Source of the DNA: an uncultured Methanomassiliicoccales archaeon
Lineage (GTDB): Archaea > Thermoplasmatota > Thermoplasmata > Methanomassiliicoccales > Methanomethylophilaceae
DNA: 64,000 nt
NCBI GenBank assembly: GCA_964392725.1
Contig: CAYMPW010000005.1
Location: 3,658-67,657 of the forward strand
Reading direction: 5' to 3'
Positions 1 to 64,000 of the stretch are shown one piece after another (position 1 is the first letter of the stretch; each line of letters opens with the position of its first letter). The notes under the pieces were generated by a model, which saw only the letters and a list, made by a program, of their open reading frames with translations, was not told the origin of the DNA and searched no databases. A program made the translations under genes and the position numbers.

Positions 1-1
1 T

Positions 2-184
2 CTGGAACGCGTGGATTTACGCGGTGAAAAGAGCAAATTCGAGGAATTGGATTATTTGAAAGAAGTCCGCTCCAATTACCTGCGTTTGGCAGAAGAAAAA
101 GGTTACAAGATAATTGATGCTTCGCGCTCTCCCGAAGATGTCGCGACCGAGATTATCGCTATCATTGAAAATATGGGGATTTGA
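2..184 (+). CDS. tmk: thymidylate (dTMP) kinase, C-terminal fragment; 5' end lies outside the window
   Basis: The frame is open from the window edge to TGA at 182-184. The translation LERVDLRGEKSKFEELDYLKEVRSNYLRLAEEKGYKIIDASRSPEDVATEII resembles the C-terminal layout of archaeal dTMP kinases. This is recognition from memory on a partial sequence. Confidence 0.45.
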   Translation: MERVDLRGEKSKFEELDYLKEVRSNYLRLAEEKGYKIIDASRSPEDVATEIIAIIENMGI

Positions 185-186
185 TT

Positions 187-1371
187 ATGCATCCTGCTGA
201 AGAAATATATTGTGAAAAAAGCAACAAATTGAGGGGAAAAACAATCGTAATGGGTATAACCGGAAGCATTGCAGCAACAGAATGCTTCTCGACTATACGT
301 GAACTTATCCGTCACGGTGCAAAGATCATTCCTGTAATGTCGGAAGCTGCCTGCGATCTCGTAGCTCCCAATGCAATCGAATTCGCGTGTGGTATTCCTC
401 CGATAACAAAGCTTACCGGTCAAACCGAACACATCAAATGGATGGGATCAAACGAAGCAGATATGTTTTTGATTTATCCCGCAACCGCAAACACAATTTC
501 AAAAATCGCAAACGGAATCGACGATGGCCCGGTAACTTCTATGGCAACCGTCGCAATCGGAAACGGAATTCCCGTAGCAATCGCACCCGCGATGCATGAG
601 GCAATGTTCAAGAACCCTGCAGTTGCGCAAAACGTTGAAACTTTGAAGAAATGGGGCGTAAGTATGATCGGCCCATACTCAGACGGAGTACGTGCAAAAG
701 TGGCATCCAGAGACGCAATCGTTGCCTGGGTTTTCAAATCATTATCAAAAGACGATCTCAAAGGAAAGCGCATCTTAGTAATAGGAGGCCGTAGTGAAGA
801 ACCATTGGATTCTATGAGAATTATCACTAATCGTTCCACAGGAATCATGGCCGTCGCATTGGTAATGCGTGCGTTCGAGCGTGGAGCGGAAGTGGACTTT
901 TGGATGGGTGGTTGCAATACACCTCTTCCCGATTATATCCCAACACGTCGTTTTGCAACAGTTGCAGAATTGATTAAAATGTCTGATGGAATCAATCATG
1001 ATGTTGTAATCGTGCCTGCTGCATTAGCAGACTTCTCACCCGAAGAAACATATGAGGGTAAAATTCCAAGTGATATGTCTTGCGATATTCACTTTAATCC
1101 TGTTCCAAAGCTTCTTCCGATTATTCGCGGTAAGTGTGACAAAGTAATTGGATTCAAGGCCGAATCCGGTCTTTCATCAGATGGACTTGTTGAAAAAGCA
1201 AGAAGTCGCATGGATGAGTATGGAATTAGTGCGGTCGTAGCAAACGATATCGATGTATCTGGAAAATCATCTACATCTGCGATATTGGTATCTTCTGAAG
1301 ATGCCGTACCTCTTGTGGGATCAAAAATGGACGTTTCCAATAAAATACTGGATTTCGCGGCTAAATTATGA
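187..1371 (+). CDS. coaBC: bifunctional phosphopantothenoylcysteine decarboxylase / phosphopantothenate-cysteine ligase
   Basis: About 395 aa. The N-terminal flavoprotein motif GITGSIAA is followed by a CoaB-type C-terminal half. ATG at 187 (the ORF track uses TTG at 181). The stop overlaps the next start (ATGA at 1368-1371). Confidence 0.85.
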   Translation: MHPAEEIYCEKSNKLRGKTIVMGITGSIAATECFSTIRELIRHGAKIIPVMSEAACDLVAPNAIEFACGIPPITKLTGQTEHIKWMGSNEADMFLIYPATANTISKIANGIDDGPVTSMATVAIGNGIPVAIAPAMHEAMFKNPAVAQNVETLKKWGVSMIGPYSDGVRAKVASRDAIVAWVFKSLSKDDLKGKRILVIGGRSEEPLDSMRIITNRSTGIMAVALVMRAFERGAEVDFWMGGCNTPLPDYIPTRRFATVAELIKMSDGINHDVVIVPAALADFSPEETYEGKIPSDMSCDIHFNPVPKLLPIIRGKCDKVIGFKAESGLSSDGLVEKARSRMDEYGISAVVANDIDVSGKSSTSAILVSSEDAVPLVGSKMDVSNKILDFAAKL

Positions 1372-2605: not shown

Positions 2606-3463
2606 ATGATAGTAGTTGGCGGTTCTTCCTCCAGATTTTTAGCGAACGATTTGGCGACAGCTTTGAAATGCGAATGTGTTCAGGCTGCCTCCACAAGATT
2701 CCCCGACGGAGAATGTTACACACGTATCGATGCTGAAACTTTGGACGATGATGTGATTATTGTTCAGAACACTTACCCAGATGAAAATATGGTCGAGATG
2801 TTTTTGATTCAGGATGCGGTTAGAAGAATGGGTGCAAAGAAAATAACCTTGGTTATCCCCTATTTTGGATATGCTAGACAGGATCGTATTTTCAAACCCG
2901 GTGAGCCCGAATCCGCAAAAGTCATGGCTAAACACTTGGCAATGGAATGTGACCGCGTAATTACTGTTGACATTCACAAAGAAACCGTACTCAATCATTT
3001 TGGCTGTCCTTCTAAAGATGTGAAAGCTGCAGAAGCTATCGCCGAGTACTTCAAAAACAAAAACATTGATTTGGTTTTGGCACCTGACATAGGAGCCGCA
3101 GACCGTGCAAAGGATGTTGGAACCAGAATGGGCGTAGATTACGACCACTTGGAAAAAGTCAGACTTTCAGGCGTAGATGTTAAAATTGCACCCGCTAAAA
3201 TGGACTGCAACGGTAAAAACGTCCTTATCGTCGACGATATCATTGCAACCGGCGGAACAATTATTGCAGCAACCGAACAGCTTAAAGAAGCAGGTGCAGC
3301 AAGCGTTACCGTAGCATGCACTCACGGTGTATTCGTAAACAATGCAATCGAAAGATTGACCGGCAGCAACCTTGACGGTGTTCTTTGCTGTAACACATTG
3401 GAAAACAAAGTTTCCCACATTTCCGTTGCCAACGTATTGGCAAAAGCAATTCTTGAGTGGTGA
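2606..3463 (+). CDS. prs: ribose-phosphate pyrophosphokinase (PRPP synthetase)
   Basis: 285 aa. PRPP-binding loop VLIVDDIIATGGT and YFGYARQDR motif. Confidence 0.9.
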   Translation: MIVVGGSSSRFLANDLATALKCECVQAASTRFPDGECYTRIDAETLDDDVIIVQNTYPDENMVEMFLIQDAVRRMGAKKITLVIPYFGYARQDRIFKPGEPESAKVMAKHLAMECDRVITVDIHKETVLNHFGCPSKDVKAAEAIAEYFKNKNIDLVLAPDIGAADRAKDVGTRMGVDYDHLEKVRLSGVDVKIAPAKMDCNGKNVLIVDDIIATGGTIIAATEQLKEAGAASVTVACTHGVFVNNAIERLTGSNLDGVLCCNTLENKVSHISVANVLAKAILEW

Positions 3464-3468
3464 ATTCA

Positions 3469-4866
3469 ATGGAAAAAGATGAGAACTTCGGAGATTGGTA
3501 CAACGAAATCGTTGAAAAAGCGAATTTATCCGACAAAAGATATCCAATCAAAGGAATGAATGTCTGGACAGCCTACGGCTGGAAAATCATGAGATTTATT
3601 GACACATACATTCGTCAGGAATTGGATGCAACAGATCACGATGAAGTTTGTTTCCCTCTTTTAATTCCGGAAACCGAATTCAAAAAAGAGAAAGACCACA
3701 TCAAAGGATTCGATTCGGAAGTTTATTGGGTTACCCACGCAGGACTCAACGAACTCGATGTCAGATTGGTTGTTAGACCTACAAGCGAAACAGCAATGTA
3801 TCCAATGTTTGCACTTTGGGTAAGATCCCATCAAGACCTTCCTTTGAAAGTGTATCAACTTGTCAACACATTCCGTTACGAGACAAAACAGACACGTTCT
3901 TTCATACGTGTTCGTGAAATTCACTTCTTTGAATCACACACATGTCACGAATCCGAAGAAGACGCACAGAAACAGGTCGAAGAAGATTTCGTAATTCTCG
4001 AAAAGATTGCAGAAAAACTCTGTCTTCCTTATTCACTTCTTGTTCGTACCGAGTGGGACAAGTTCCCCGGAGCGCACTACACTGTTGGAATCGACACAAC
4101 AATGCCCAATGGTAGAACATTACAGATAGGTTCGATTCACCACTACAGAACAAACTTCTCGGTTCCGTACGAAATCACATTTGAAGATGATGATGGACAG
4201 CACAAACATGTACATCAGACCACATTCGGTATGAGTGAACGTTTGCTCGGTGCAGTCATCGGAGTTCATGGAGACGATAAAGGATTGGTTATGCCTCCCG
4301 CAATCGCTCCTTTCCAGGTAGTTCTTATTCCTATTCTTTCCAAGAACAATACGGAAGAGGTTATGGAAGCCTGTAAAAACATTACAAAAGTTCTTGCAGA
4401 CAGCGGAATCCGCATAAAACTCGATGACAGGGACGACAGACCCGGAAGTAAATTCTACGACTGGGAAATTAAAGGTGTTCCACTCCGTCTCGAAGTTGGC
4501 GGAAGAGATATCGAAAACAATGTCGTATCTTTTGCAAGGCGTGATAGTGGAGAGAAAGGTACAATTTCACTCGATAACCTTGCCGATGGAGTCAAACTTG
4601 TTTTGAACGTAATTGCTGAAGACATGTATGCCAAAGCAAAATCCATTCAACAAGGGGCAATTCAGGAAATCGAATCTCTCGATGATATTCCTGAGAAAGT
4701 ACTCAGACTCGGATGGTGCGGTTGCGAAGAATGCGGACACATAATCGAAGATAAATTCGATCTCAAATTGCTCGGAACTCCATACACACCCGAAAATTAC
4801 TCCGGAAAATGTGTTGTATGCGGCAAACCCGCAGATAAACCCGCTTACGTCGCTCGTTCGATGTAA
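3469..4866 (+). CDS. proS: prolyl-tRNA synthetase (archaeal/eukaryal type with C-terminal Zn-binding domain)
   Basis: About 465 aa. Class II aaRS motifs (FRYE, HFFESH) and a C-terminal Cys cluster CGCEECG...CVVCG. ATG at 3469 follows the prs TGA; the ORF track starts at GTG 3457. Confidence 0.9.
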   Translation: MEKDENFGDWYNEIVEKANLSDKRYPIKGMNVWTAYGWKIMRFIDTYIRQELDATDHDEVCFPLLIPETEFKKEKDHIKGFDSEVYWVTHAGLNELDVRLVVRPTSETAMYPMFALWVRSHQDLPLKVYQLVNTFRYETKQTRSFIRVREIHFFESHTCHESEEDAQKQVEEDFVILEKIAEKLCLPYSLLVRTEWDKFPGAHYTVGIDTTMPNGRTLQIGSIHHYRTNFSVPYEITFEDDDGQHKHVHQTTFGMSERLLGAVIGVHGDDKGLVMPPAIAPFQVVLIPILSKNNTEEVMEACKNITKVLADSGIRIKLDDRDDRPGSKFYDWEIKGVPLRLEVGGRDIENNVVSFARRDSGEKGTISLDNLADGVKLVLNVIAEDMYAKAKSIQQGAIQEIESLDDIPEKVLRLGWCGCEECGHIIEDKFDLKLLGTPYTPENYSGKCVVCGKPADKPAYVARSM

Positions 4867-4884
4867 TTTTTAAAAACTATACTT

Positions 4885-4939: not shown

Positions 4940-5707
4940 ATGACCTTCGAAGAAAACGAGATAATATATCTTGTAGATACAACCGGAAAAAGACATTGGC
5001 TCAAAGTGGCCGACGGAATGTTGAAAATTTCATCTTTGGGCACTGTAGATGGTTCCCGTTTCCGTGATTTGGATGACGGTTCAAAAATTTCTATCGTAGG
5101 TCGCGAATATTCCGTGTTCCGTCCTGGAACTTTGGAGCTTATGGAATCTCTTGAGAGAGGCGCTCAAATCATCACACCAAAGGATGCAGCAACTATAATT
5201 TTGAATTGTGGTGTTGTAGCTGGCACATCTGTAATTGAAGTAGGTGCAGGCTCCGGAGGCCTTACAACTGCATTGCTTTCTGCAGTAGCACCTCTCGGAA
5301 AGGTTCACACCGTAGAACTCAAGGATGAAAATGCTCAGCGTGCTCTGAAAAACGTAAGGCGTACAGGTTTGGATAAATATTGGTCGTACACAATCGGCGA
5401 TGCAAAAGATGTAGAATTCGAAGCAACTGCCGACGTTCTTACAATGGATATGCCCGATCCTTGGCTTGCACTGGATAATATTTTACCTCATCTTCGTCCC
5501 GGAGGCCACATTTGCGCATACGTTCCCAACATGAATCAAGCAGAATCCATAGTTAATGCGCTTCGTGAACGTGGATTTGCGGAAGTTTATGCCTTGGAAA
5601 ACATGCAACGCGGTTTAGAGGTTCATCCTGGCGGAGTTCGCCCATCTTTTGAGATGTTGGGCCATACAGGATATCTGATATTCGGAAGAAAAGTCGCAGT
5701 CTTATAA
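4940..5707 (+). CDS. trmI: tRNA (adenine-N1)-methyltransferase, TrmI/Gcd14 family
   Basis: 255 aa. SAM motif VIEVGAGSGGLT and DMPDPW motif, both typical of TrmI. Confidence 0.8.
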   Translation: MTFEENEIIYLVDTTGKRHWLKVADGMLKISSLGTVDGSRFRDLDDGSKISIVGREYSVFRPGTLELMESLERGAQIITPKDAATIILNCGVVAGTSVIEVGAGSGGLTTALLSAVAPLGKVHTVELKDENAQRALKNVRRTGLDKYWSYTIGDAKDVEFEATADVLTMDMPDPWLALDNILPHLRPGGHICAYVPNMNQAESIVNALRERGFAEVYALENMQRGLEVHPGGVRPSFEMLGHTGYLIFGRKVAVL

Positions 5708-5765: not shown

Positions 5766-6005
5766 ATGGTAGTAGCAGAGATCAGAATTGAACTCAAAAA
5801 AGGTGTCGCAGACCCTGAAGGAAAAAACACAATGAAAACATTGGATTCCCTCGGATTCCACGATGTTGTCAATGTAAAATCCATCAAAGTTTTCGAAATT
5901 GAATTCGATATGGACGAAGATCAGGCACGTGTTGCTGCAGATGAAGCTTGCAAAAGACTTCTTGCAAACCCTGTGATTCAGAACTACACTATTTTGGTGA
6001 GATGA
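5766..6005 (+). CDS. purS: phosphoribosylformylglycinamidine synthase subunit PurS
   Basis: 79 aa. LKKGVADPEG and LLANPVIQNY motifs. Sits immediately upstream of purL. Confidence 0.85.
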   Translation: MVVAEIRIELKKGVADPEGKNTMKTLDSLGFHDVVNVKSIKVFEIEFDMDEDQARVAADEACKRLLANPVIQNYTILVR

Positions 6006-6009
6006 TAGC

Positions 6010-8346
6010 ATGTCTGCAGACAGGCTGATGAAACAACGTGATGTTCCATACACGCTTCTCGATATCAATATCGCAGATGCAACCGATGAGGAGCTTAAAT
6101 TCCTTTCAAAAGATATGGGACTTAACCTTTCTCTTGACGAAATGCATGTTGTAAAAGATTATTTCGAGAAAGAAGGCAGAACACCTACCGATGTAGAACT
6201 TCAGTCTCTTGGACAGGCATGGAGTGAACATTGCTGCTACAAAAGTTCAAAACCAATTCTGAAAGAATTCGTATTCTCTATCGATCGCTCCGATATCCTC
6301 TCCAGGGGAGATGCGGGAGTTATGGTATTTGATGACGAATACGGATATGCACTCAGAATCGAAAGTCACAATCACCCTTCTGCTATCGAACCTTATGGAG
6401 GAGCTGCAACCGGAATCGGAGGAATTCTCAGAGATGTTGTATGTATGGGTGCACAGCCCATCGGACTTGCAGATCCTTTATGCTTCGGACCTCTTGATTA
6501 TGATGGAGAACTTCCACCTGGTATCAAACACCCCCGCTATCTTGCAAACGGTGTTGTAAGTGGAATCAGAGATTATGGAAACCGTGTTGGAATACCAACA
6601 ATCACAGGCGGTATGTTCTTTGATGAAAAATACGCGGGTAACTGCCTTGTAAATGTTGCAGCACTCGGTATTGTCAAAAGAAAAGATCTCGCATTAAACT
6701 ATGCAGGCGGTCCCGGAGAAGTTATGATTCTTCTCGGAGGCCGTACGGGCCGTGACGGTATTCACGGAGTTACATTCGCATCCGCAGATTTGACAGAAAC
6801 CTCCGATGAAGATTCAAGGGGTGCTGTTCAGCTCGGAGATCCAATTACAAAAGAACCTCTCATGCACGCATGTTTCGAGGTTAATGCTCAACACCTGATT
6901 ACAGGAATGAAAGATTTGGGCGGAGGGGGACTCAGTTGCGTTGTTGGAGAAATGGCTCTTGACGCAGGTTGCGGAGCCGATGTAGATTTGGAAAAAGTAC
7001 CACTTAAAGAAGATGGTCTCGCACCCTGGGAAATTTGGGTGTCTGAATCTCAGGAACGTATGATGGTTACCGCAAAGCCCGAAAATGTACCTCGTATTTT
7101 AGAAATTTTCGATATGTGGGATGTTCTTGCAACACCTATCGCAGTAACAACCGATATGCCTCGCACACGTTTGTTCTGGAAAGGAACCGAAATTTTCGAT
7201 ATGGATTTGGAATTCCTTACAGGAGGTCCCGTATACAACAGGCCTTATGTGATTCCCGAAGTATCTTCATACGAAAAACAGGTCATGCCAACACTTCCAT
7301 CTCACACAGAAGTAATTCTTGCAATGCTTTCTGATCCAAATGTTGCATCAAAAGAATGGGCAATCAGGCAGTACGATCACGAAGTCCGTGCAGGTACAGC
7401 AATCCATCCTATGGTTGGTAAAATGAATAAGACCGGTCCTGGTGACGCATCTGTTCTTTTGCCTGTTCCTGGAAGTTTGAGAGGATTGGCAGCAGCAATC
7501 GGATGTAACCCCTGGTTCACAGAAGCTGACCCCTACAGAGGCGGAAAAGCATCTATCGATGAAACATTCCGTAACATTATCGCAGTGGGAGCAAGCCCTA
7601 ACGCATTAACAGATTGTCTCAACTTCGGAAACCCTGAAAACCCTGAAAGACTCGGAGAATTCAGAGAAGCTGTAAGAGGAATCGGAGAATTGGCATCTGC
7701 TTTAAGGATCCCGATTCCCTCTGGAAATGTAAGTTTATACAATGAAGCACCCGGTGGAAAGTTCATTCTCCCAACACCTATGATTCTCGGATGCGGAATC
7801 ATTGATGATGTCCGCAAGGCAATCACGGCAGATTTCAAGGAAGAAGGAAACAAAATTTACATCGTAGGAAGCACCAAAGACGAAATGGGAGCTTCACTCT
7901 TATTCCGTAAATTCGGAGGAGAACAGGGAGCTGTTCCCGACACTGATGCGGATAATCTCAACACCTTGTGCAACAGGATGCTTGAAGCAACCAATGCAGC
8001 AACAATACGCAGTTGCCACGATTGTTCCGACGGTGGAATGATTATTGCTGTTGCAGAAATGTGTATTTCCGGAGACATCGGAGCAAAACTTGATGTTTCA
8101 TCGATGGAAGACATCGGAAACACAAAGAGATTCTACTCTGAAAGCAACACTCGTTGGATTGCAGAAGTCCGTCCTGAAAACGAAGAGATGTTTATCAACT
8201 ATCTTGGAGACAGGGCAGTATGCATCGGAACAACAGGCGGAGATTCACTTTCGGTTCTTGGTACAGATATCGAAATTCCTGTTCCTGAACTTAGAAAAGC
8301 CTGGAATGATCCTATTTGGAACATTATGGGAGGCGATGTACAATGA
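6010..8346 (+). CDS. purL: phosphoribosylformylglycinamidine synthase subunit PurL
   Basis: 778 aa. AIR-synthase-like repeats (ESHNHPS, DLGGGGLS). Confidence 0.95.
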   Translation: MSADRLMKQRDVPYTLLDINIADATDEELKFLSKDMGLNLSLDEMHVVKDYFEKEGRTPTDVELQSLGQAWSEHCCYKSSKPILKEFVFSIDRSDILSRGDAGVMVFDDEYGYALRIESHNHPSAIEPYGGAATGIGGILRDVVCMGAQPIGLADPLCFGPLDYDGELPPGIKHPRYLANGVVSGIRDYGNRVGIPTITGGMFFDEKYAGNCLVNVAALGIVKRKDLALNYAGGPGEVMILLGGRTGRDGIHGVTFASADLTETSDEDSRGAVQLGDPITKEPLMHACFEVNAQHLITGMKDLGGGGLSCVVGEMALDAGCGADVDLEKVPLKEDGLAPWEIWVSESQERMMVTAKPENVPRILEIFDMWDVLATPIAVTTDMPRTRLFWKGTEIFDMDLEFLTGGPVYNRPYVIPEVSSYEKQVMPTLPSHTEVILAMLSDPNVASKEWAIRQYDHEVRAGTAIHPMVGKMNKTGPGDASVLLPVPGSLRGLAAAIGCNPWFTEADPYRGGKASIDETFRNIIAVGASPNALTDCLNFGNPENPERLGEFREAVRGIGELASALRIPIPSGNVSLYNEAPGGKFILPTPMILGCGIIDDVRKAITADFKEEGNKIYIVGSTKDEMGASLLFRKFGGEQGAVPDTDADNLNTLCNRMLEATNAATIRSCHDCSDGGMIIAVAEMCISGDIGAKLDVSSMEDIGNTKRFYSESNTRWIAEVRPENEEMFINYLGDRAVCIGTTGGDSLSVLGTDIEIPVPELRKAWNDPIWNIMGGDVQ

Positions 8347-9164
8347 ATGCAGAAGACATTAAAGTATGCGTACTGAGAATTGAAGGTACAAACTGTGAAG
8401 ATGAAATGGCTGAAGCTTTCAATATGGTTGGGGCAACAGCAGAAAAAGTTCATTTGAAACAGCTCGCTAACCAGTCTCCCGCAGACATGCGTCGCAATCT
8501 GGAAGATTATGATATTCTTGCATTACCTGGCGGTTTCTCTTCAGGAGATTATGTCCGTGCAGGTGCTATTTTTGCAGCAAGGATGTTATCCACAATCGGT
8601 CACGATTTGAAATACTTCGTTGAATCCGAAAAACCTGTTTTGGGAGTTTGTAACGGATTCCAAGTATTGGTTGAATTGGGACTCCTTCCAAATCTTGTTC
8701 CTGAAAAAATGGGACAGCCCACAGCAGCACTGTACAACAATGATTCTGGAAGATTTGAGTGTAGGCCCACTCTCTTAAGAAATGAGAGCAGACGTAACTG
8801 TGTGTTCACAACAGACATTCCTAAGAAAGAAGTTCTCATGTTCCCTTCAGCACACGGTGAAGGAAAATTAATGAGTTTAGATCCAGATTTCGTTTGGAAC
8901 CTTGAAGACAATGATCAGATTGTGTTCAGATATGTTTCACCCGAAGGTGAAGATTCAGACACACCTTATCCTTGGAATCCAAACGGCTCTCCTTCAGATA
9001 TTGCAGGTGTTTGTAATACGGCTGGAAATGTCCTTGGACTTATGCCACATCCTGAACGTGCCATGACCAGGTTCACTCACCCCGATTGGACTCGTGGTTA
9101 TGAAACCGAAGATGGTGACGGAAAAGCGATTTTCACATCAGTTATTCATGAGCTTGTAAAGTAA
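8343..9164 (+). CDS. purQ: phosphoribosylformylglycinamidine synthase glutaminase subunit PurQ
   Basis: Class I amidotransferase with GVCNGFQ nucleophile elbow and MPHPER. ATG at 8343 overlaps the purL TGA (ATGA). Confidence 0.9.
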   Translation: MNAEDIKVCVLRIEGTNCEDEMAEAFNMVGATAEKVHLKQLANQSPADMRRNLEDYDILALPGGFSSGDYVRAGAIFAARMLSTIGHDLKYFVESEKPVLGVCNGFQVLVELGLLPNLVPEKMGQPTAALYNNDSGRFECRPTLLRNESRRNCVFTTDIPKKEVLMFPSAHGEGKLMSLDPDFVWNLEDNDQIVFRYVSPEGEDSDTPYPWNPNGSPSDIAGVCNTAGNVLGLMPHPERAMTRFTHPDWTRGYETEDGDGKAIFTSVIHELVK

Positions 9165-9823: not shown

Positions 9824-9824
9824 T

Positions 9825-9838
9825 ACCAATTAATTGGT
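9825..9838. promoter_or_regulatory. perfect 14-bp palindrome ACCAATTAATTGGT between a TATA-like box and the ribK/rbkR ATG
   Basis: Read directly from the sequence. The minus-strand TATA-like box TTTTTATA corresponds to 9846-9853, and the ATG is at 9823. Confidence 0.5.
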
Positions 9839-44785: not shown

Positions 44786-44786
44786 G

Positions 44787-54349: not shown

Positions 54350-54365
54350 TCCATGCGCAAACCCA

Positions 54366-54728
54366 ATGTCACTAATAGCGAGTTACATGCCGTTGGTAAT
54401 CGTGGGCATAATTGCTCTCGGTTTCGCACCTTTGGCATGGTGGGTGTCAAGATTTATCAGGCCCAGAAACCCAACTCACTGGATGGAGACAACATACGAA
54501 TGCGGATCGGAACCGGTTGGAGATGCACACGTGCAGTTCAGGTTCCAATATTACGCCTACGCAATTATTTTCGTGGTGTTTGACCTGGTCGTCACTCTTT
54601 TGATGATTTGGGCCGTTGCATTCTCTAATTTGACCCTTATGGGCCAGATGTGGATGTTGATTTTCTTTGGTGTTTTGCTTTTGGGTGTGACATATGCTCT
54701 CAAAAAGGAGGAAAACATATGGATATGA
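54366..54728 (+). CDS. nuoA: complex I-like (Nuo/Fpo-like) subunit A
   Basis: 120 aa from ATG 54366, 3 TM, YECG motif. The ORF-track start at 54207 overlaps proC and the promoter. Confidence 0.85.
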   Translation: MSLIASYMPLVIVGIIALGFAPLAWWVSRFIRPRNPTHWMETTYECGSEPVGDAHVQFRFQYYAYAIIFVVFDLVVTLLMIWAVAFSNLTLMGQMWMLIFFGVLLLGVTYALKKEENIWI

Positions 54729-55282
54729 GTCTATACCCCCATGCTGTTGCAATGAGCGCAGACGAGTTTATGACTTGGTCTTCTGCGATGATTAACGATA
54801 TGCTGAGCGCCGGTACAAAGAAAACCGTCGACAAATTGACTGGTCCAATTTGGGCTTGGGCAATGAAAAACTCCATGCATCCTTTGCACTGGGGTCTTGC
54901 CTGCTGTGCACTTGAAATGGCTGCGGCTTCCGCACCAAAACACGATGCAGAGCGTTACGGTATGATTTACCGTTCATCCCCTAGACAGACCGATATTCTT
55001 CTTGTAAACGGTTGGATTTCTAAAAAAATCCGCCCCGACCTCAGACGTCTTTACGAACAAATTCCTAACCCTAAATGGGTTGTAGCAATGGGCGAATGTG
55101 CCATTTCTGGCGGCCCTTGGTATGATTCATACAACATTGTTCAGGGTTTGGACCAGATCGTCCCTGTTGATCTTTATATCCCTGGATGCCCTGTGAAACC
55201 TGATGCAATGATTGATGGTTTCCTTTTGCTCCAGAAAAAGATTGAAGATTACTTCAACAGAGGAGTATTCTTGGAGGACTAA
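54719..55282 (+). CDS. nuoB: complex I-like subunit B (N2 cluster subunit)
   Basis: GLACCALEM, GECAISGGP and GCP motifs. ATG 54719 follows AAGGAGG. Confidence 0.9.
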   Translation: MDMSLYPHAVAMSADEFMTWSSAMINDMLSAGTKKTVDKLTGPIWAWAMKNSMHPLHWGLACCALEMAAASAPKHDAERYGMIYRSSPRQTDILLVNGWISKKIRPDLRRLYEQIPNPKWVVAMGECAISGGPWYDSYNIVQGLDQIVPVDLYIPGCPVKPDAMIDGFLLLQKKIEDYFNRGVFLED

Positions 55283-55284
55283 GA

Positions 55285-55752
55285 ATGGCCGAGACTATTC
55301 AGGCACCTACATGCGAGCAGGTCATCTCTTCGCTTGAAGGCCAGTTCCCCGGAAAAATTAAGATTGTCAATTCTGAAGTACGTAGGGTTTATGCAACCGT
55401 TGAGAAAGACGCCATTTACGATGTTTGTCTCTTCGCACGCGACAACTTAACTTTCGAACACTGCTCATCTGTATTGGGTGTAGATCGCGAAACAACCCTT
55501 CAGGTTGTTTACCACCTCTCCAATTATTTCAGTGCAGTCACAATCGAACTCACAGTAGACGTTCCTGTAGACGACCCTCACATAGAATCCGTTACACCCC
55601 TTTGGGGAGGTGCGAATTGGCACGAGAGGGAAACATACGAGCTTTTCGGTATCATTTTCGATAACCACCCCAAGCTCGAAAGACTTCTTACTCCTACAGA
55701 GTACGAATTCTTCCCCTTCAGGAAATCATACAAGCTCAGGAGGCAGGAATAA
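55285..55752 (+). CDS. nuoC: complex I-like subunit C
   Basis: 155 aa. ANWHERETYELFGIIF motif. Confidence 0.9.
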   Translation: MAETIQAPTCEQVISSLEGQFPGKIKIVNSEVRRVYATVEKDAIYDVCLFARDNLTFEHCSSVLGVDRETTLQVVYHLSNYFSAVTIELTVDVPVDDPHIESVTPLWGGANWHERETYELFGIIFDNHPKLERLLTPTEYEFFPFRKSYKLRRQE

Positions 55753-56882
55753 TGGCAGAACCTATCCAAACTTTTGATAAGATGCATACAGACAGTATGA
55801 CTGTCATTATGGGACCTCAACATCCTTTCTCACACGGTTTGTGGACTCTTAAAGTCGAAATCGATGGAGAAATTGTTACCGATGCAGAACCTATTGTTGG
55901 TTACTTGCACCGCGGTTGGGAAAAGGAATGTGAAAACAGAACATACGCAAAGATCGTCCCTATGACAGACCGTTTGTGCTATGCAGCATCCATGACCTAC
56001 AACCACTTGTTCTGTATGACTGTCGAAAAAGCTTTGGGAATCGAGATTCCTGAAAAAGCAAAATATATTAGAATTGTAGCAGATGAAATCTGTCGTATCC
56101 AGTCACACCTTATGTGGTTGGCAGCAGTCGGTACCGATCTTGGTAACCTCACTGTTTTCCTTTGGGCAATGAGAGAAAGGGAATTCTTCCTTGACCTCAA
56201 CGTTAGACTCACTGGATCAAGGATGACCACCAACTACAACCGTATCGGTGGTGTCAGAAATGATACAACAGACTACTTCGACAGAGACTGCATGAGATGC
56301 GTAGAGCGTTTCGAGAAAGCACTCTGGGATATCATCGCACTTGTTGACGATTCCGCTACTTTCGTATCCCGTATGCAGGGAATCAGTTTCCTTTCACGCG
56401 AACAGGTTGCAAACCTCGGTCTTACTGGACCCGCAATGAGAGGATGCGGTGTGGACTACGATGTCCGCCGTGATGATCCTTACGATGGATACGATGAAAT
56501 GGAATTCGAAGTTCCCGTGCTCACCGAAGGTGACGCATATGCAAGATACATGGTCAGAATTGAAGAGATGTTCCAGTCCTGTGAAATTATTCGCCAGGCA
56601 ATGAAAAAAGTGGAACACTACCCCAAAACTGCACCCTACAGGCTTAAAGTGCCCACAAAAGTTCCCGAAGGAACAGCATTCTGTAAGCTTGAAGATCCTC
56701 GCGGAGAGAGTCTTATGTATATTGCATCTGACGGTACAGACCAGCCTTACAGGCTTAAAGTACGTAGTCCTATTTTCACGAACGTTTCTGCAGCCAAGGA
56801 AATGGTCCAGGGATGCAGGATTGCAGATGTGCCTTCAATCATGGCTATGATTGATATGTGCCTCGGAGAAACAGACAGGTGA
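55752..56882 (+). CDS. nuoD: complex I-like subunit D
   Basis: 376 aa. GPQHP, GYLHRG and RSPIF motifs. TAATG overlap with nuoC. Confidence 0.9.
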   Translation: MAEPIQTFDKMHTDSMTVIMGPQHPFSHGLWTLKVEIDGEIVTDAEPIVGYLHRGWEKECENRTYAKIVPMTDRLCYAASMTYNHLFCMTVEKALGIEIPEKAKYIRIVADEICRIQSHLMWLAAVGTDLGNLTVFLWAMREREFFLDLNVRLTGSRMTTNYNRIGGVRNDTTDYFDRDCMRCVERFEKALWDIIALVDDSATFVSRMQGISFLSREQVANLGLTGPAMRGCGVDYDVRRDDPYDGYDEMEFEVPVLTEGDAYARYMVRIEEMFQSCEIIRQAMKKVEHYPKTAPYRLKVPTKVPEGTAFCKLEDPRGESLMYIASDGTDQPYRLKVRSPIFTNVSAAKEMVQGCRIADVPSIMAMIDMCLGETDR

Positions 56883-56883
56883 T

Positions 56884-58059
56884 ATGATGTCCTACAGTAG
56901 TATTCTTGATTGGGTCATGTTCACCGATCCTATGACGAACCCCTTCTATCCATTCGGCGGAGCATACAACCTCCCTTACGACTGGTGTTATAAGATTTGG
57001 GAGTTCCTCGGCGGAACAATCGCATGGTTGATTAACCTTATTTTCCCCGGAAATGTAGTATCTACATGGTTGATTTCTGAACCAGTGCTTAACGCATTCG
57101 CACTGATTCTTTTCATGCTGGTAATCTTCATTGTCGTGTTCGTTGGAACTTTACTATCCCTTTGGGAAGAACGTAAAGTTCTCGGTAGAATGATGGACAG
57201 ACGCGGTACACAGATCGGTCTTAAGGGATTCCTTCAGTGTGTTGCAGACGGTATTAAAACGTTCATGAAAGAGAACACAATCCCCAAGAAAGTCGACAAC
57301 ATGACTTACATGTGGACTTTGTCTCTTGTTATCGGAACATCCGTCCTTATCGCATGTATGATTCCTCTATCTGATAGATGGTTCGTCGTCGATTACGGCG
57401 TTGGTCTATTGATTATTATGGCGCTCTTTGCTTTGGCACCTTTCTTCATCTTGGTGTCTGGTTGGGCGCAGAACAACAAATATTCACTCATTGGTGGTAT
57501 GAGGGCTGCAGAGCTTATGGTTTCATACGAAATCCCTATGCTCATCCTTATCGGAACTGTCGCACTCATGGCTGGCAGTTTGAATATTAATGACATTGTA
57601 CACGCGCAGTATGATACAATGCCTTACTTCATTCCTCAGATAATCGGTTTCATTACATTCTTCTGGTGCGCTGTTGCAGAATCCGAAAGGACACCTTTCG
57701 ATCTTGCAGAAGCAGAAGCAGAACTTGTAGAAGGATGGCAGACCGAGTACGCAGGTATGAAATGGGGTCTCATTATGTTGGCCGATTATTTCAGAGGATA
57801 TGTTGCATGTGCAATGACCGTTATCCTTTACCTCGGCGGTTGGATGCTTCCCGGAGTTGGCGACTTTAACAACGTCATGCCCGAGATTGTGTTCCTTCTG
57901 AAAACATGGTTCGTGTTCTTCCTTATGATTTTGGTAAGAGCATCCCTTGCACGTGTCAGAACAGACCAGATTCTTAACCTCGGTTGGAAAGTATTCCTTC
58001 CATTGTCGGTGATTAACCTCTTGGTTGTTCTCCTTCTTGTAGTTGGAGGTGTGTTCTAA
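56884..58059 (+). CDS. nuoH: complex I-like subunit H
   Basis: About 391 aa from ATG 56884. WEERKVLGRMMDRRG and ESERTPFDLAEAEAELV motifs. Confidence 0.9.
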   Translation: MMSYSSILDWVMFTDPMTNPFYPFGGAYNLPYDWCYKIWEFLGGTIAWLINLIFPGNVVSTWLISEPVLNAFALILFMLVIFIVVFVGTLLSLWEERKVLGRMMDRRGTQIGLKGFLQCVADGIKTFMKENTIPKKVDNMTYMWTLSLVIGTSVLIACMIPLSDRWFVVDYGVGLLIIMALFALAPFFILVSGWAQNNKYSLIGGMRAAELMVSYEIPMLILIGTVALMAGSLNINDIVHAQYDTMPYFIPQIIGFITFFWCAVAESERTPFDLAEAEAELVEGWQTEYAGMKWGLIMLADYFRGYVACAMTVILYLGGWMLPGVGDFNNVMPEIVFLLKTWFVFFLMILVRASLARVRTDQILNLGWKVFLPLSVINLLVVLLLVVGGVF

Positions 58060-58799
58060 TGCCTATGAAATATCTTGATAAATATCCTAAGAGCTTGGCT
58101 CCTACACTTTGGGTTGTAAAACCTTTGGTTACAGTCATGAAGCTCTTTTTGAAGGTCATTCCCAGAAGGTCAATGACCATCATGTACCCTTACGAAAAGG
58201 AATGGGTCCCCGATAACTTCCGTGGACGCCCCGGACTTAGGTTCGACAAGTGCGTCGGTTGCGGAATGTGCGAAAGGATGTGCCCAACAGCCTGTATCGA
58301 AATGGTAGAAGTTCCCGGAGACGACGGTAAAATGGTCGCAAGACCACAGGTCAACCTCGGAAGATGTATGATGTGCGGATTCTGTGCAGAATACTGTCCT
58401 CTCGACGCTATGACCGTTACACCTGAGTACGAGTTGGCAGAGTACACAAGAGAAGATCTCATTTATGGACCCCGCAGACTCAACTTCGAAGGAACAAACG
58501 AAAATATGGAAGTTCATATCGAAGAGCACCTGATGTCTAACATCGCAAAAGGTATTCTCGATCAGCCTACATCTGCAGCAAAGACCGATAGGCCTGTTTG
58601 TGATGATGATGTATGTATCGGATGCCAGAAATGTGCAAAGGTATGTCCTGTCAATGCAATAGAAATGTATGAAAAAGGAGTTAACGACAAAGGTAAGCCC
58701 ATAAAGCGCCCCAAAGTCGACGACTCTGCATGTATTTCTTGTAGCAAATGTGTGGATGCATGTCCTAAAGACTGTCTCCACATCGAAGAGGTGTTATGA
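58059..58799 (+). CDS. nuoI: complex I-like subunit I with an additional C-terminal 2x[4Fe-4S] ferredoxin domain
   Basis: 246 aa. Four CxxCxxCxxxCP motifs starting at C65, C103, C186 and C225, where canonical NuoI has two. Confidence 0.85.
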   Translation: MPMKYLDKYPKSLAPTLWVVKPLVTVMKLFLKVIPRRSMTIMYPYEKEWVPDNFRGRPGLRFDKCVGCGMCERMCPTACIEMVEVPGDDGKMVARPQVNLGRCMMCGFCAEYCPLDAMTVTPEYELAEYTREDLIYGPRRLNFEGTNENMEVHIEEHLMSNIAKGILDQPTSAAKTDRPVCDDDVCIGCQKCAKVCPVNAIEMYEKGVNDKGKPIKRPKVDDSACISCSKCVDACPKDCLHIEEVL

Positions 58800-59128
58800 T
58801 GAGTTTCCTTAATGATATTTGGAACGGCGTAACAGGCTTCGCAGGATTCATTTACAACAACCCTGATTTGGTCGCATTTGTAGTGCTTGCAGCAATTGCA
58901 ATCACAGCAGCGATCTATGTGGTCAAAGAAGAAGAGGTTGTTCACAGTGCATTCTATTTGGCGCTTGTTTTCGTCTGTGTAGCAGTAACATACTTCTTCC
59001 TGGAAGCCGAATTTATCGGTACAGTGCAGATGCTTGTTTACGTAGGAGCAATCACAATTCTCTTCGCATTCAGCATTATGCTTACCAGAAGAAAGATTAT
59101 GGGTGACAAAGGAGGCGATTCCCAATGA
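58796..59128 (+). CDS. nuoJ: complex I-like subunit J, N-terminal part (J1)
   Basis: 110 aa, 3 TM, EAEFIGTVQMLVYVGAI motif. ATGA overlaps on both sides. Confidence 0.8.
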   Translation: MMSFLNDIWNGVTGFAGFIYNNPDLVAFVVLAAIAITAAIYVVKEEEVVHSAFYLALVFVCVAVTYFFLEAEFIGTVQMLVYVGAITILFAFSIMLTRRKIMGDKGGDSQ

Positions 59129-59406
59129 AGACTAAGACTATCGTTGGAATTTGTGTCGCAGTAGCTCTTTTGCTTGTTCTCGGTGCAGGTGCAATGGCAA
59201 CTCAGTGGGAAACAGCAAATGATGAACCTGTGGACATTCCATTCGCCCCCGATGCGGACGGTTCCTTGTCCGATAATTCGTTGAATATTTCATTGTTTGA
59301 AACATACGGCCCCGTATTGCTTGTATTATCTTTGTTGATGTTCGGAGCAATCGTTGGCGGTGTATGTATCGCAAGAGAGGAGGATGAACCTGATGATTCC
59401 AATTGA
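59125..59406 (+). CDS. complex I-like subunit J, C-terminal part (J2)
   Basis: 93 aa. LFETYGPVLLVLSLLMFGAIVG matches the NuoJ C-terminal helix. Confidence 0.7.
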   Translation: MKTKTIVGICVAVALLLVLGAGAMATQWETANDEPVDIPFAPDADGSLSDNSLNISLFETYGPVLLVLSLLMFGAIVGGVCIAREEDEPDDSN

Positions 59407-59695
59407 GTTCTATCTTGTATTTGCAGGAATTCTCTTCGCAATCGGAGTTTACGGTGTTCTCACCAAAACAAACTCCATCGTTATCTTGATGTGTATTGAG
59501 CTTATGCTTAACGCAGCAAACATCAATTTCATTGTGTTTGCAGCATTCAATGGTGATGTAGTCGGTCAGACTTTCGTTATCATGACAATTGCAGTCGCAG
59601 CAGCAGAAGTTGCAGTCGGAATTGCAATCCTTCTCAATGCATATAAGGCCAAGAAGACAACCGATGTTGACGAGCTCACATCCTTGAGGTGGTAA
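59393..59695 (+). CDS. nuoK: complex I-like subunit K
   Basis: 100 aa from ATG 59393 after GAGGAGG. CIELMLNAANI motif. Confidence 0.9.
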   Translation: MIPIEFYLVFAGILFAIGVYGVLTKTNSIVILMCIELMLNAANINFIVFAAFNGDVVGQTFVIMTIAVAAAEVAVGIAILLNAYKAKKTTDVDELTSLRW

Positions 59696-59697
59696 AT

Positions 59698-61749
59698 ATG
59701 TTCATAGAATATGCATGGTTAGTTCCGTTGATACCCCTTATTTGCTTTGTCGTAATCGGATTCTTCGGAAAAAGAACGCCAGAGGGCGGAGGATACATCG
59801 CAATTGCAGGTGCATTAGTATCTTTTGTGATTTCCGCACTCGTGTCTTACGAATACTTAACAAGCGCAGCATATGCTAACCACCTTGCTTACGAAGTTTC
59901 ACTTCAGTGGTTCGCATTCTCCTCGACAAGTGGATTCTATGCAATTAATGCAGGTATCTACATCGACAGTCTTTCGTGCGTAATGATGTTGTTCTCGTCG
60001 TTCATTTCGACTTTGATCTTCGTCTATTCAATCGGATACATGTCACACGAGGGAGAAAAGAAACCCAGGTACTACGCCGAAGTTTCACTCTTCTTATGCG
60101 CAATGCTTGGACTTATTGTTTCAAGCAACTTCCTTGAGATGTTCATCTTCTGGGAAATCATGGGTCTTTGTTCCTACCTCCTTATCGGATTCTGGAGCTT
60201 CAAGCACCCCAACGGCGACGAAGCCGCAATCAGTGCAGCTTCCGCAGCTAAAAAAGCATTCATTGTTACTCGTCTTGGTGACGTGAGTTTCATGGCCGGA
60301 CTCTTTGTACTTTTGTACGCATTCAAGAGTCTCGACTTCAGTGTACTCTTCGACCCTGCAAACATTGCAGCAGTTGATCCTACACTCATCGCTCTCGGTT
60401 CACTCTTCCTCTTTGGTGGAGTTATCGGTAAGAGTGCTCAGTTCCCCTTGCACGATTGGCTTCCTGATGCAATGGCAGGTCCTACAACAGTATCTGCACT
60501 TATCCACGCAGCAACAATGGTTAAAGCAGGTGTATATCTCACCGCAAGAGCTTTCCCCTTGTTCACACAGGTGGAATACGTTATGTTGATCGTAGCAATT
60601 ATCGGTGGAATCACAGCATTCTTTGCCGCAACAATGGCTATGAACAACATGAACATCAAGAGAGTCCTCGCATACTCTACCTTGTCACAGCTGGGATACA
60701 TGATTCTCGGTCTTGGAGCAGGCGGATATGTAATGGCTATCGGTATGAACACCAACAACCCTGCACTTATTGCAGCAGGCGCAGCAGGTTTCACTGCAGC
60801 ATGTTTCCACATGATGAACCACGCTTTCTTCAAAGCATTGCTCTTCATGTGTTCAGGATCTGTCATCCACGCATGCGGCACAGAAGACATGCGTCACATG
60901 GGTGGTCTACACGATAAAATGAAGGTCACATCAATTACGATGTTGCTCGGTTCACTTTCAATTGCCGGTTTCCCCTTCTTCAGTGGATTCTGGTCCAAAG
61001 ATTTGATTATCGAATCTGTAATGGAAGCAACCGCAGAACCAATCGGATGGATCTTTATGATTCTCTGGATTCTCGCAATCGTAACCGCATTTATGACAGC
61101 ATTCTACATGTTCCGCATGTGGTACATGACATTCAAGGGCCCAATTGGAGATGCTACAGAGCACTGCCACGGTGAATCCCCTAACACAATGACTGTACCT
61201 TTGATGATTCTTTCAGTATTCGCTGTATTGTCTGGTTTCCTTATCCTTATCGGACTCGGAGACGTTCTCAATATTTCGATTGTAGATGGAGCATTCATTG
61301 TGGGTATGCCTAGCGGTCATGATGCAATGTACTTCATGGAGCACTTGTTCACCAACCCCTACACCTACCTCACAATCGTGTTGGCATTGGTCGGTATTGG
61401 TATCGCTTACTTGATGTATGTTAAAAAATCAATCAACCCCGGTTCTTTCAACAAGAATGGTGAATCTTGGATTTACAAGGCACTCACCCAGAGATGGTGG
61501 TTCCCCGATATGTACAACCAGCTTGCACTCAAATTCGGATACGGCGTAGCACGCGGTGTCAACTTTGTAGATAGGCAGATTGTGGATGGTACCGTAAACG
61601 GTCTTTCCAGCGCAGTTATCGGATCTGGAGACACCATGAGTAAGATGGAAACCGGTAATGTCCGCAACTACGCGGGCGTTGTTATCACAGGAGTGATCTT
61701 GCTGACAATTATGGCAGTTGCCATGTTCTATGTATTAGGAGGTATTTGA
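59698..61749 (+). CDS. nuoL: complex I-like subunit L (antiporter-like)
   Basis: About 683 aa. WLPDAMAGPTTVSALIHAATMV motif. Confidence 0.9.
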   Translation: MFIEYAWLVPLIPLICFVVIGFFGKRTPEGGGYIAIAGALVSFVISALVSYEYLTSAAYANHLAYEVSLQWFAFSSTSGFYAINAGIYIDSLSCVMMLFSSFISTLIFVYSIGYMSHEGEKKPRYYAEVSLFLCAMLGLIVSSNFLEMFIFWEIMGLCSYLLIGFWSFKHPNGDEAAISAASAAKKAFIVTRLGDVSFMAGLFVLLYAFKSLDFSVLFDPANIAAVDPTLIALGSLFLFGGVIGKSAQFPLHDWLPDAMAGPTTVSALIHAATMVKAGVYLTARAFPLFTQVEYVMLIVAIIGGITAFFAATMAMNNMNIKRVLAYSTLSQLGYMILGLGAGGYVMAIGMNTNNPALIAAGAAGFTAACFHMMNHAFFKALLFMCSGSVIHACGTEDMRHMGGLHDKMKVTSITMLLGSLSIAGFPFFSGFWSKDLIIESVMEATAEPIGWIFMILWILAIVTAFMTAFYMFRMWYMTFKGPIGDATEHCHGESPNTMTVPLMILSVFAVLSGFLILIGLGDVLNISIVDGAFIVGMPSGHDAMYFMEHLFTNPYTYLTIVLALVGIGIAYLMYVKKSINPGSFNKNGESWIYKALTQRWWFPDMYNQLALKFGYGVARGVNFVDRQIVDGTVNGLSSAVIGSGDTMSKMETGNVRNYAGVVITGVILLTIMAVAMFYVLGGI

Positions 61750-61750
61750 G

Positions 61751-63253
61751 ATGGATTTCGCAATACCTCTGTTGCCTTTGTTGTTGATCATCCCTCTCGT
61801 AGGAGGTATCTTAACACTCTTTATGGGTGGAGAGAGGGCTAAATACGCAAAATACGTCGCAGGTGTAACCGCCGGTATCGCAATGGTACTTTCGTTGCTG
61901 TTGTTCTTTGCCGACGATTTGTCCGTATACAATATTACAATCCCCTGGATCCAGTCCGCGGGCTTGGTAATGTCTATTGCATTGGGCGTAGATGGACTCA
62001 GCATGCTCATGGTTGTTCTTACAACTGTGATGGTATTCTTGGTCATCATCTTCTCCGCATCCGAGAGTGACAAGCCGAATTATTTCCACTGTCTTCTCCT
62101 TGCAATGGAAGTTGGACTCATTGGTGTATACACAGCACAGGATTACTTCCTGTTCTACATCATGTGGGAACTTACACTCATACCCATGTTCTTTATGATC
62201 TCCTGGTATGGAGGCCCCAGAAGACACTATGCAGCAATTAAGTTCTTCATTTACACACACGTAGCAAGTTTGGTCATGTTGATCGGTATCTTTGCACTCG
62301 GTTTCGAAGCCGCTGCAATTACCGGCGGAGCAGTTGACTTCTCCTTCGAAGCTATATCCGTAGCATCTGCTGGATTCTCATCTGTGTTCCAGGTATTGGT
62401 ATTCGCATTGCTCTTCTTCGGATTTGCAGTTAAGATGCCTATCGTACCTTTCCACACATGGCTTCCCGATGCACACACAGAAGCACCTACAGCAGGTTCA
62501 GTTCTTCTGGCAGCTGTTATGCTTAAGATGGGTTCATACGGTATCATTAGAGTTTGTCTCGACGTTCTCCCTGAAGGAGCCGTATATTGGCAGCCCGTAA
62601 TCCTCGTGATTGCAATCGTTTCCATTATCTACGGTGCATTCGCATGTATCGCTCAGACCGATCTCAAGAAAATGGTGGCATTCTCGTCCATCAGTCACAT
62701 GGGTATGGTTTTGCTCGGTATCGGATGTCTTTCCGACGCAGGAGTTACATTCGCAATATTCCAGATGTTCGCACACGGTCTCGTTACCGCAGTGTTGTTC
62801 ATGGTCTGCGGTATGACCGGACACGTTCTCGGAACAAGAGAAATTCCACTTCTCGGTGGTCTTGCAGGAAAGATGCCTATCTATGCAGCATTCATGATGT
62901 TCGGATTTATGGCATCACTCGGTTTACCCGGTCTTGTTGGATTCTGGGGAGAATTCGGAGTTATCTTCGCGTTCTACGAATACGCAGTCTCTATCGACAT
63001 GATTTGGTTGATTCTGTTCTGTTTGTTGTCCCTTATGCTCACAGCAGGTTACTACCTCTGGGCTATGCAGAGAACACTCTTCGGAAAACTCACTGATAAA
63101 ATCGATGTTGAACACGCACACGACGTATCACTTACAGAAGGCATCGCACTCGGTGTTGTTTGTGCACTCATTGCACTCTTCGGACTTTGGCCCGACCTCG
63201 CCATTAATGTGATTGAAACATTCTCTGTAGGATTCTTCGGAGGCTTGATCTGA
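61751..63253 (+). CDS. nuoM: complex I-like subunit M (antiporter-like)
   Basis: 500 aa. FHTWLPDAHTEAPTAGSVLLA motif. Confidence 0.9.
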   Translation: MDFAIPLLPLLLIIPLVGGILTLFMGGERAKYAKYVAGVTAGIAMVLSLLLFFADDLSVYNITIPWIQSAGLVMSIALGVDGLSMLMVVLTTVMVFLVIIFSASESDKPNYFHCLLLAMEVGLIGVYTAQDYFLFYIMWELTLIPMFFMISWYGGPRRHYAAIKFFIYTHVASLVMLIGIFALGFEAAAITGGAVDFSFEAISVASAGFSSVFQVLVFALLFFGFAVKMPIVPFHTWLPDAHTEAPTAGSVLLAAVMLKMGSYGIIRVCLDVLPEGAVYWQPVILVIAIVSIIYGAFACIAQTDLKKMVAFSSISHMGMVLLGIGCLSDAGVTFAIFQMFAHGLVTAVLFMVCGMTGHVLGTREIPLLGGLAGKMPIYAAFMMFGFMASLGLPGLVGFWGEFGVIFAFYEYAVSIDMIWLILFCLLSLMLTAGYYLWAMQRTLFGKLTDKIDVEHAHDVSLTEGIALGVVCALIALFGLWPDLAINVIETFSVGFFGGLI

Positions 63254-64000
63254 TGGATATAACTTCAATATTCGGAGAATTCGCACCTTTGGCACCCATG
63301 ATTATCATGATTTTGGGAGCATTGATTTTGCCCGCGATTCAGTTCATCGGCAAAAACAGGTTGATTACATCAATAACGGCATTGATCTTTGTCGTTTTGA
63401 GCTTGATTGTAAACTTAATTATGCTTACATCTGACTTTACAGGAGTCTACATGGACCTGATGTCATACGACGCTTTCAGCGGTCTTATGATTCTCTTGTT
63501 CCAGATTGTTGTGATTCTTGCAGTCATGTTGTCTGCAGCAGATGTAGAATCCACAAGGATGCACGTCGGCGCATACTACTCCTTGCTTCTCGGAGCAACA
63601 ACCGGTATGATGTTCGTAGCATCTGCAAGTGATTTGTTGACAATCTTTGTCGGCGTCGAACTCACAAGTATTTCCTCATACGCACTTGTTGCAATGAAGA
63701 GGAAAGACCCAAGAGCAGCAGAAGCCGCAGTTAAGTACGTAATCATCGGTGGTTTGTCTACCGCACTTACGATTTACGGTATCTCTTTACTCTACGGTCT
63801 CACAGGTTCAACAAACCTTGAAGCAATCGGTGCAGTACTCGAATCCGCAGGATTCAGCTGGGCATTCGTAATTGCAATGATTACAATTATTGCAGGTTAC
63901 GGATTCAAGATTGCAGCGGTTCCGTTCCACATGTGGGCACCCGATGTATACGAAGGAGCAGCAACACCCGTTTCACTCTTCTTGGCAACAGGATCTAAGA
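63253..64000 (+). CDS. nuoN: complex I-like subunit N, N-terminal part (3' end outside the window)
   Basis: ATG 63253 overlaps the nuoM TGA (TGATG). The frame stays open to the window edge. PFHMWAPDVYEGA motif near 63920-63960. Absent from the ORF track because no stop falls inside the window. Confidence 0.85.
   Translation, partial: MDITSIFGEFAPLAPMIIMILGALILPAIQFIGKNRLITSITALIFVVLSLIVNLIMLTSDFTGVYMDLMSYDAFSGLMILLFQIVVILAVMLSAADVESTRMHVGAYYSLLLGATTGMMFVASASDLLTIFVGVELTSISSYALVAMKRKDPRAAEAAVKYVIIGGLSTALTIYGISLLYGLTGSTNLEAIGAVLESAGFSWAFVIAMITIIAGYGFKIAAVPFHMWAPDVYEGAATPVSLFLATGSK

Follow-up and report, generated by a model that had tools for sequence, protein, structure and literature searches.

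Does a 64-kb stretch of archaeal DNA in which no gene ends in TAG record adaptation to pyrrolysine (Pyl) decoding, or could chance, base composition or a lost or altered code account for the missing stop codon? The question is raised by contig CAYMPW010000005.1 (assembly GCA_964392725.1, positions 3,658 to 67,657), from an uncultured Methanomassiliicoccales archaeon. This whole stretch, here called the window, is 64 kb long, has a guanine-plus-cytosine (GC) content of 41.7% and is about 95% coding (3,452 intergenic bases). An earlier note had claimed that none of its 70 stop codons is TAG and that TAA and TGA are about equally frequent, and three gene calls bore out both statements. Greedy selection of the longest nonoverlapping open reading frames (ORFs) of at least 60 amino acids gave 70 genes, closed by 36 TAA, 34 TGA and 0 TAG. 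A self-trained six-frame codon-usage model gave 69 genes (34 TAA, 35 TGA, 0 TAG) and, with a stricter overlap rule, 67 (33 TAA, 34 TGA, 0 TAG); this model added purS and an Rpb6-like gene, both missed by the greedy call. The absence of TAG stops is real, and its interpretation as amber avoidance is supported, in agreement with every test that could be run.

Frames that do end in TAG were also scored. The window holds 90 such stop-to-stop frames of at least 40 codons, nearly all nested in called genes of another frame, and all had coding scores that were negative or near zero, indicating that no window gene is ended or interrupted by TAG. The window has no TAG-containing gene in any of the categories used for Genetic Code 34, in which TAG encodes Pyl. 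The three TAG triplets that the earlier note gave as examples were accurately located, the first in frame after the purS stop and the others out of frame. The identity of purS rests on the codon-model call and a match to PurS in the syntenic locus L003.

1-64000: protein-coding genes with their stop inside the window, 67-70 genes, 0 TAG (three gene calls, frame-specific counts)
6003-6008, plus strand: purS stop TGA at 6003-6005, then in-frame TAG at 6006-6008; the purL ATG is at 6010
20561-20563, plus strand: TAG out of frame (offset 2) near the end of an aminotransferase gene (19413-20570, stop TAA)
43794-43796, plus strand: TAG out of frame (offset 1) near the end of an RNase III-like gene (43259-43801, stop TAA)

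These counts bear on the proposal that TAG now encodes a standard amino acid, as it does in certain codes of bacteria, phages or eukaryotes. Such a reassignment would leave TAG unused as a stop, but sense TAG would be expected inside genes; the roughly 20,000 codons of the window genes contain 0 in-frame TAG, and no ORF is split at TAG, so that we regard this reading as barely conceivable. With no in-frame TAG, a purely sense TAG (Code 34) and an ambiguous TAG look the same in the window.

To judge significance, we compared the stop codons with TAG triplets outside the coding frame. TAG accounts for 460 of 2,393 stop triplets (19%) in the two noncoding frames of the sense strand (315/1,079 in frame 2 and 145/1,314 in frame 3) and for 35 of the 187 intergenic ones (18.7%). 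At a TAG share of 18.6%, the probability of 0 in 70 stops is 5.5e-7; given the 34 to 36 TAA stops and an intergenic TAA:TAG ratio of 106:35, it is 3-6e-5. At 22%, the median of archaea lacking Pyl (Pyl-), the probability of 0/69 is 3.6e-8, and the ordinary code-11 pattern of non-Pyl archaea is not what the window displays. At 95% confidence, the true TAG-stop share is no higher than 4.2-4.4% (window only, 67-70 genes), and the observed 0 of 67-70 lies within the share of about 5% or less that we took as amber avoiding.

A purely compositional cause would be avoidance of TA or CTAG, for example through restriction-modification or repair, with no link to decoding. The window does show the signs of it: the observed/expected ratio of the TA dinucleotide is 0.64; CTAG occurs 30 times on one strand versus 218-261 times for TTAA, TCGA and GATC (Markov observed/expected, about 0.5); and the CTA codon is used 1.7 times per 1,000. 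However, in frame 2 TAG occurs as often as TAA (315 versus 335), and the sediment clade described below as clade B has the same depletion as the window (Markov-corrected observed/expected of 0.55 for CTAG and 0.68 for TAG), yet TAG closes 19-24% of its genes. Oligonucleotide bias is therefore not the explanation, and we consider such a cause highly improbable. The zero count of TAG stops is not due to chance or base composition. As a separate observation, CGA (0.2 per 1,000) and CGG (0.4 per 1,000) are, like CTA, nearly unused codons in the window.

We next placed the window among its relatives. Its prolyl-tRNA synthetase (ProRS) has one match of 100% (P0001); every other match is at most 81% identical, all of them from Methanomassiliicoccales metagenome-assembled genomes (MAGs), mostly named Methanomethylophilaceae, Methanoplasma or Methanoprimaticola. 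A scan of a genome collection by ProRS returned 274 relatives, and the best 80 of the 274, all Methanomassiliicoccales-type MAGs, were kept. In a neighbor-joining tree of ProRS, the window groups with L006 (binchicken_co154_118) and L087 inside a Methanomethylophilaceae-like clade that also contains Methanoplasma and Methanoprimaticola MAGs. Its gene order is the same as that of the nearest relative (L003). The order placement that the earlier note had proposed from gene content is thereby confirmed, and, judged from one marker plus synteny, the window is a deep, low-GC lineage within Methanomethylophilaceae. Five of the matches (72-77% identical in ProRS; L013, L015, L016, L017 and L059) bear the record titles Bacteroides ovatus, Ruminococcus sp. 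CAG:579, Lachnospiraceae bacterium, Dialister hominis and 'Methanomicrobiales archaeon' amid otherwise Methanomassiliicoccales matches; these bins appear to be taxonomically mislabeled.

To compare stop usage across the order, we followed 20 window genes through their orthologs in 82 related loci, in which the ortholog stop is unambiguous whatever the start. In GC-rich relatives, greedy longest-ORF calling inflated TAG to 15% through spurious ORFs, and the codon-model caller and an ortholog-only census were used instead.

Five nearest genomes (79-81% identical in ProRS): 5 loci, GC 42-59%; TAG in 0/60 orthologs and in 1/67 of all called genes
Clade A (Methanomethylophilaceae-like): 57 loci, GC 42-67%; TAG in 11/426 orthologs (2.6%) and in 5.1% of all called genes
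Clade B (sediment clade): 5 loci, GC 57-67%; TAG in 11/59 orthologs (18.6%) and in 24.1% of all called genes
Clade C (MAGs named Methanomassiliicoccaceae plus deeper branches): 20 loci, GC 53-59%; TAG in 14/121 orthologs (11.6%) and in 18.6% of all called genes

The window differed from clades B and C together (Fisher test, p = 2.5e-4 for orthologs and 1e-6 for all called genes) and did not differ from clade A (p = 0.38). Near-absence of TAG stops is a clade trait and is not order-wide, since two other Methanomassiliicoccales clades close 12-24% of genes with TAG. The earlier note had called strong amber avoidance established for Pyl-decoding Methanomassiliicoccales; it is published, and it holds as a trait of one clade in our census, but it does not extend to the whole order. 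The low-GC relatives L007, L010 and L086 use more TAA; GC-rich relatives use nearly all TGA. Five window genes closed by TAA or TGA have the same C terminus closed by TAG in more distant relatives, most of them in clades B and C:

2606-3463, plus strand: prs (ribose-phosphate pyrophosphokinase), stop TGA; orthologs end in TAG at the same C terminus in 10 more distant Methanomassiliicoccales genomes (Pfam, ortholog table)
3457-4866, plus strand: proS (prolyl-tRNA synthetase), the taxonomic marker, stop TAA; ortholog stop TAG in 4 relatives
4940-5707, plus strand: GCD14/Trm61-type tRNA methyltransferase, stop TAA; ortholog stop TAG in 9 relatives
8316-9164, plus strand: purQ (glutaminase subunit of phosphoribosylformylglycinamidine synthase), stop TAA; ortholog stop TAG in 3 relatives
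9167-9829, minus strand: CTP-dependent riboflavin kinase, stop TGA; ortholog stop TAG in 5 relatives

The census also bears on a sampling effect, by which TAG would be a normal minor stop (5-10%) that a housekeeping-rich 64 kb happens to lack. Highly expressed and housekeeping genes prefer TAA in many prokaryotes, and at a share of 4.1% the probability of 0/69 is 0.056. That probability falls to 0.029 at 5% and to 3e-4 at 11%, however; in clades B and C, TAG closes 12-19% of these very housekeeping orthologs; and a genome-wide share of 5% or less would itself be amber avoidance. We find sampling distinctly unlikely as the explanation.

Two observations concern individual TAG ends in these relatives. 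In about 13 genomes of the TAG-poor clade, the metallo-beta-lactamase (MBL)-fold gene (Lactamase_B) upstream of a GINS gene ends in '...TAG GCC TGA', with GCG and TCT variants (L006, 2342-2365; orthologs in L012-L014, L016, L017, L019, L023, L027, L030, L040, L042 and L046); its position corresponds to just upstream of the window start. In the nearest-relative species (L003/L006), this TAG lies within an 11-nucleotide tail-to-tail overlap with the GINS gene, and in most of the genomes a backup stop follows one codon past it. The overlap and the backup stop may explain why the TAG survived. In clade B (L051, L056, L064, L065 and L068), prs ends in TAG and the read-through frame stays open for 468 codons, which suggests an in-frame run into proS and a putative fusion.

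Taken with the published record, these results favor amber avoidance in a Pyl-decoding lineage of Methanomethylophilaceae, a reading to which we assign a probability of roughly 80%. Borrel et al. found the first three Methanomassiliicoccales genomes to be low in amber stops (11% at most) and interpreted this as an adaptive response to an amber suppressor that is constitutively active (PMC3941956, PMC4153887). Shalvarjian et al. reported a median TAG share of 5.0% in archaea with Pyl (Pyl+) versus 22% in Pyl- archaea, and 4.1% in Pyl+ Methanomethylophilaceae (PMC12626013). They also showed that UAG decoding in M. acetivorans is ambiguous and stated that compensation for lost TAG stops follows GC content (PMC12626013). 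By proteomics, Kivenson et al. demonstrated genome-wide decoding of TAG as Pyl in M. alvi; they named this Genetic Code 34, counting Methanomethylophilus, Methanogranum and Methanoplasma among the recoded genera (bioRxiv 10.1101/2024.09.30.615893). In strict Code 34, genes with TAG fall mostly into Category 1 (internal TAG with homologous flanks) and few or none into Category 4, in which read-through gives an out-of-frame overlap of more than 60 nucleotides (same preprint).

According to our model, an amber-suppressor tRNA(Pyl) with a CUA anticodon, charged by PylRS, would read UAG as pyrrolysine in this lineage. With UAG wholly or partly read through, genes ended by TAG would make C-terminally extended proteins, and selection would replace their stops, TAG to TAA being a single transition. 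TAA and TGA would then split termination by GC content, about 1:1 at 42% GC. The outcome would be a two-stop gene set, with TAG surviving only at a small number of Pyl sites elsewhere in the genome. The model implies that the window's own genome carries pylTSBCD and that suppression is the selective cause of the loss of TAG stops, both of which we infer.

Several points weigh against this reading. Pfam matches in the window include neither pyl nor methylamine methyltransferase genes, ARAGORN found no tRNA genes in it, and it has no Rfam matches. Methanomethylophilaceae include both Pyl+ and Pyl- genomes (PMC12626013), and Kivenson et al. state that Pyl archaea are not universally low in TAG (bioRxiv 10.1101/2024.09.30.615893). 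Finally, 69 genes are too few to tell a genome-wide TAG share of 0% from one of about 4%.

We searched for Pyl machinery in related genomes. The query, which we take to be the M. alvus PylRS (its listed identity to database entry P0122 is 100%), retrieved 3,453 PylS homologs. One of them, P0199, lies on L002, a 2,440-bp low-GC contig of GCA_964558565.1 that carries pylS, pylB and the start of pylC. A pylT with a CUA anticodon is located upstream of pylS at 114-184 and is about 90% identical to what we take to be the M. alvus tRNA(Pyl); near-identical copies precede pylS in L090 and L091. ARAGORN reported no tRNA in L002 despite the evident pylT, which makes standard tRNA finders unreliable for scoring Pyl status in Methanomassiliicoccales. 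The composition of L002 (GC 43.4%; tetranucleotide correlation with the window, r = 0.88) is compatible with that of the window, and a codon-usage likelihood was marginally in favor, and no more, of its belonging to the window's genome. We rejected it as part of that genome, as the assembly has its own ProRS (L086), 79% identical to the window's. GCA_964558565.1 is thus a Pyl+ low-GC relative and a different genome, and the 11 genes of its syntenic locus (L086) include no TAG stop.

Other PylS candidates were also set aside. P0205 (L001, GC 63%), P0219 (L088, GC 46%) and P0187 (L089, GC 53%) are unlike the window in composition, and P0245 (L090-L092, GC about 51%), considered as a candidate PylS for the nearest relative's species, proved to come from unrelated samples. 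A second search, with P0199 as the query, found no PylS homolog closer than 69%; a PylS of the window's genome, if it exists, cannot be picked by similarity.

The Pyl+ relative also informs the possibility that the avoidance is a relic, in which Pyl-decoding ancestors lost the machinery, TAG stops did not reaccumulate, and TAG is now an ordinary but rare stop. The Pyl- genomes of Methanomethylophilaceae lend this some plausibility, as do Methanosarcina strains, among which Pyl- strains are only moderately above Pyl+ strains in TAG use (13.5% versus 7.8%; PMC12626013). Against it, the probability of 0/69 is below 1e-3 at TAG shares of at least 10%, the AT-rich composition, with 19% TAG off frame, would restore TAG stops fast once selection lifted, and the closest low-GC relative examined is Pyl+. 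We judge a relic unlikely. A long shot, in our estimation, is that this lineage has purged TAG more fully than any described Pyl archaeon, perhaps keeping it in methylamine methyltransferase genes, or that TAG became unassigned after Pyl loss. If true, the lineage would be a clean natural codon-capture intermediate.

Inspection of the pyl loci revealed a recurrent TAG. In three separate TAG-poor Methanomassiliicoccales pyl loci, the pylB stop is a TAG exactly 1 nucleotide before the pylC start (L002, 2095-2101; L088, 1984-1990; L090, 11888-11894; L091, 2615-2621; L092, 1938-1944). If this TAG were read through, PylB would be extended by 13-19 residues across the pylC start; the locus L001, which is GC-rich, has TGA there instead. 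In M. acetivorans, PylB has a C-terminal TAG with a suggested role in tuning Pyl synthesis (PMC12626013), and the recurrence of a pylB TAG in another order is suggestive of feedback control. The pyl loci L001 and L090 also contain mtmB, mtbB and mttB split at in-frame TAG, in line with the earlier note's warning that standard ORF calling may truncate genes. TAG-aware gene calling is needed for the window's genome, where Pyl genes would otherwise be split as they are in these relatives.

By Pfam, the window's archaeal housekeeping genes encode ProRS, PurS/L/Q, PAN, RPA, XPD, PCNA, TFS, transketolase and transaldolase. Genes for AMP phosphorylase, form III RuBisCO and an IF-2B-family protein are contiguous at 43811-47536; the last is probably ribose-1,5-bisphosphate isomerase, and together the trio looks like the archaeal AMP salvage pathway. 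As annotated, the IF-2B-family and RuBisCO ORFs share about 50 nucleotides, and the true RuBisCO start therefore probably lies downstream of the called one. At 54353-64000 is an operon for an Fpo/Nuo-like membrane complex, its last gene cut by the window end. Its Pfam matches are the 20-kDa, 30-kDa and 49-kDa subunits, NADH dehydrogenase subunit H, a 4Fe-4S subunit, chain 6 and two antiporter-like subunits, and small ORFs are interspersed among its genes. No NuoE/F/G-type input module was seen in the window; the Fpo-like complex of Methanomassiliicoccales is described as being without one. A 501-amino-acid ORF on the minus strand (41720-43225) has a good coding score (90.5) and no Pfam match.

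How does the window compare with known systems? Amber avoidance, the cause proposed for it and even a genetic code with its own name have all been published (Borrel 2014; Kivenson 2024; Shalvarjian 2025), and the finding is ordinary for the lineage and opens no new question. With it, the Methanomethylophilaceae known to have almost no amber stops gain a divergent, AT-rich lineage. The closest parallel is "Ca. Methanomethylophilus alvus" (or alvi) and the Code 34 Methanomethylophilaceae (PMC4153887; bioRxiv 10.1101/2024.09.30.615893), which fall in the same family-level clade by ProRS. TAG stops are nearly absent in both (1.6% in M. alvus [PMC4153887], 0/69 in the window), and TAA and TGA do all the termination. 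Unlike the M. alvus group, the window represents a separate, deep lineage (ProRS, at most 81%) with a GC content of 41.7% versus about 56%; owing to this lower GC content, TAA shares termination 1:1 with TGA, whereas TGA dominates in the M. alvus group. The balance in the window, set against TGA-dominant GC-rich relatives, fits the published GC-dependent compensation. Code 34 is defined by internal Pyl codons and a pyl cassette, and the likeness of the window to it lies in stop usage and phylogeny.

Methanosarcina spp. have a GC content of about 41-42%. At this similar GC content they too are Pyl-decoding methanogens with reduced TAG stops (4-5%; PMC4153887, PMC12626013), but they belong to another phylum and have another PylRS class, with an N-terminal domain; UAG is experimentally both stop and Pyl in them, and TAG stops persist at several percent. 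Methanomassiliicoccus luminyensis and clades B and C are of the same order as the window, and their syntenic housekeeping genes are orthologous. They differ in TAG use, at 11% in M. luminyensis (PMC3941956) and 12-24% in clades B and C, including at the ends of genes that the window closes with TAA or TGA. Among bacteria, Pyl decoders such as Acetohalobium arabaticum have a Pyl cassette and translate some UAG codons as Pyl; in contrast to the avoidance seen in the window, they keep 20-30% TAG stops and regulate the cassette rather than avoid the codon (PMC4153887, PMC3941956).

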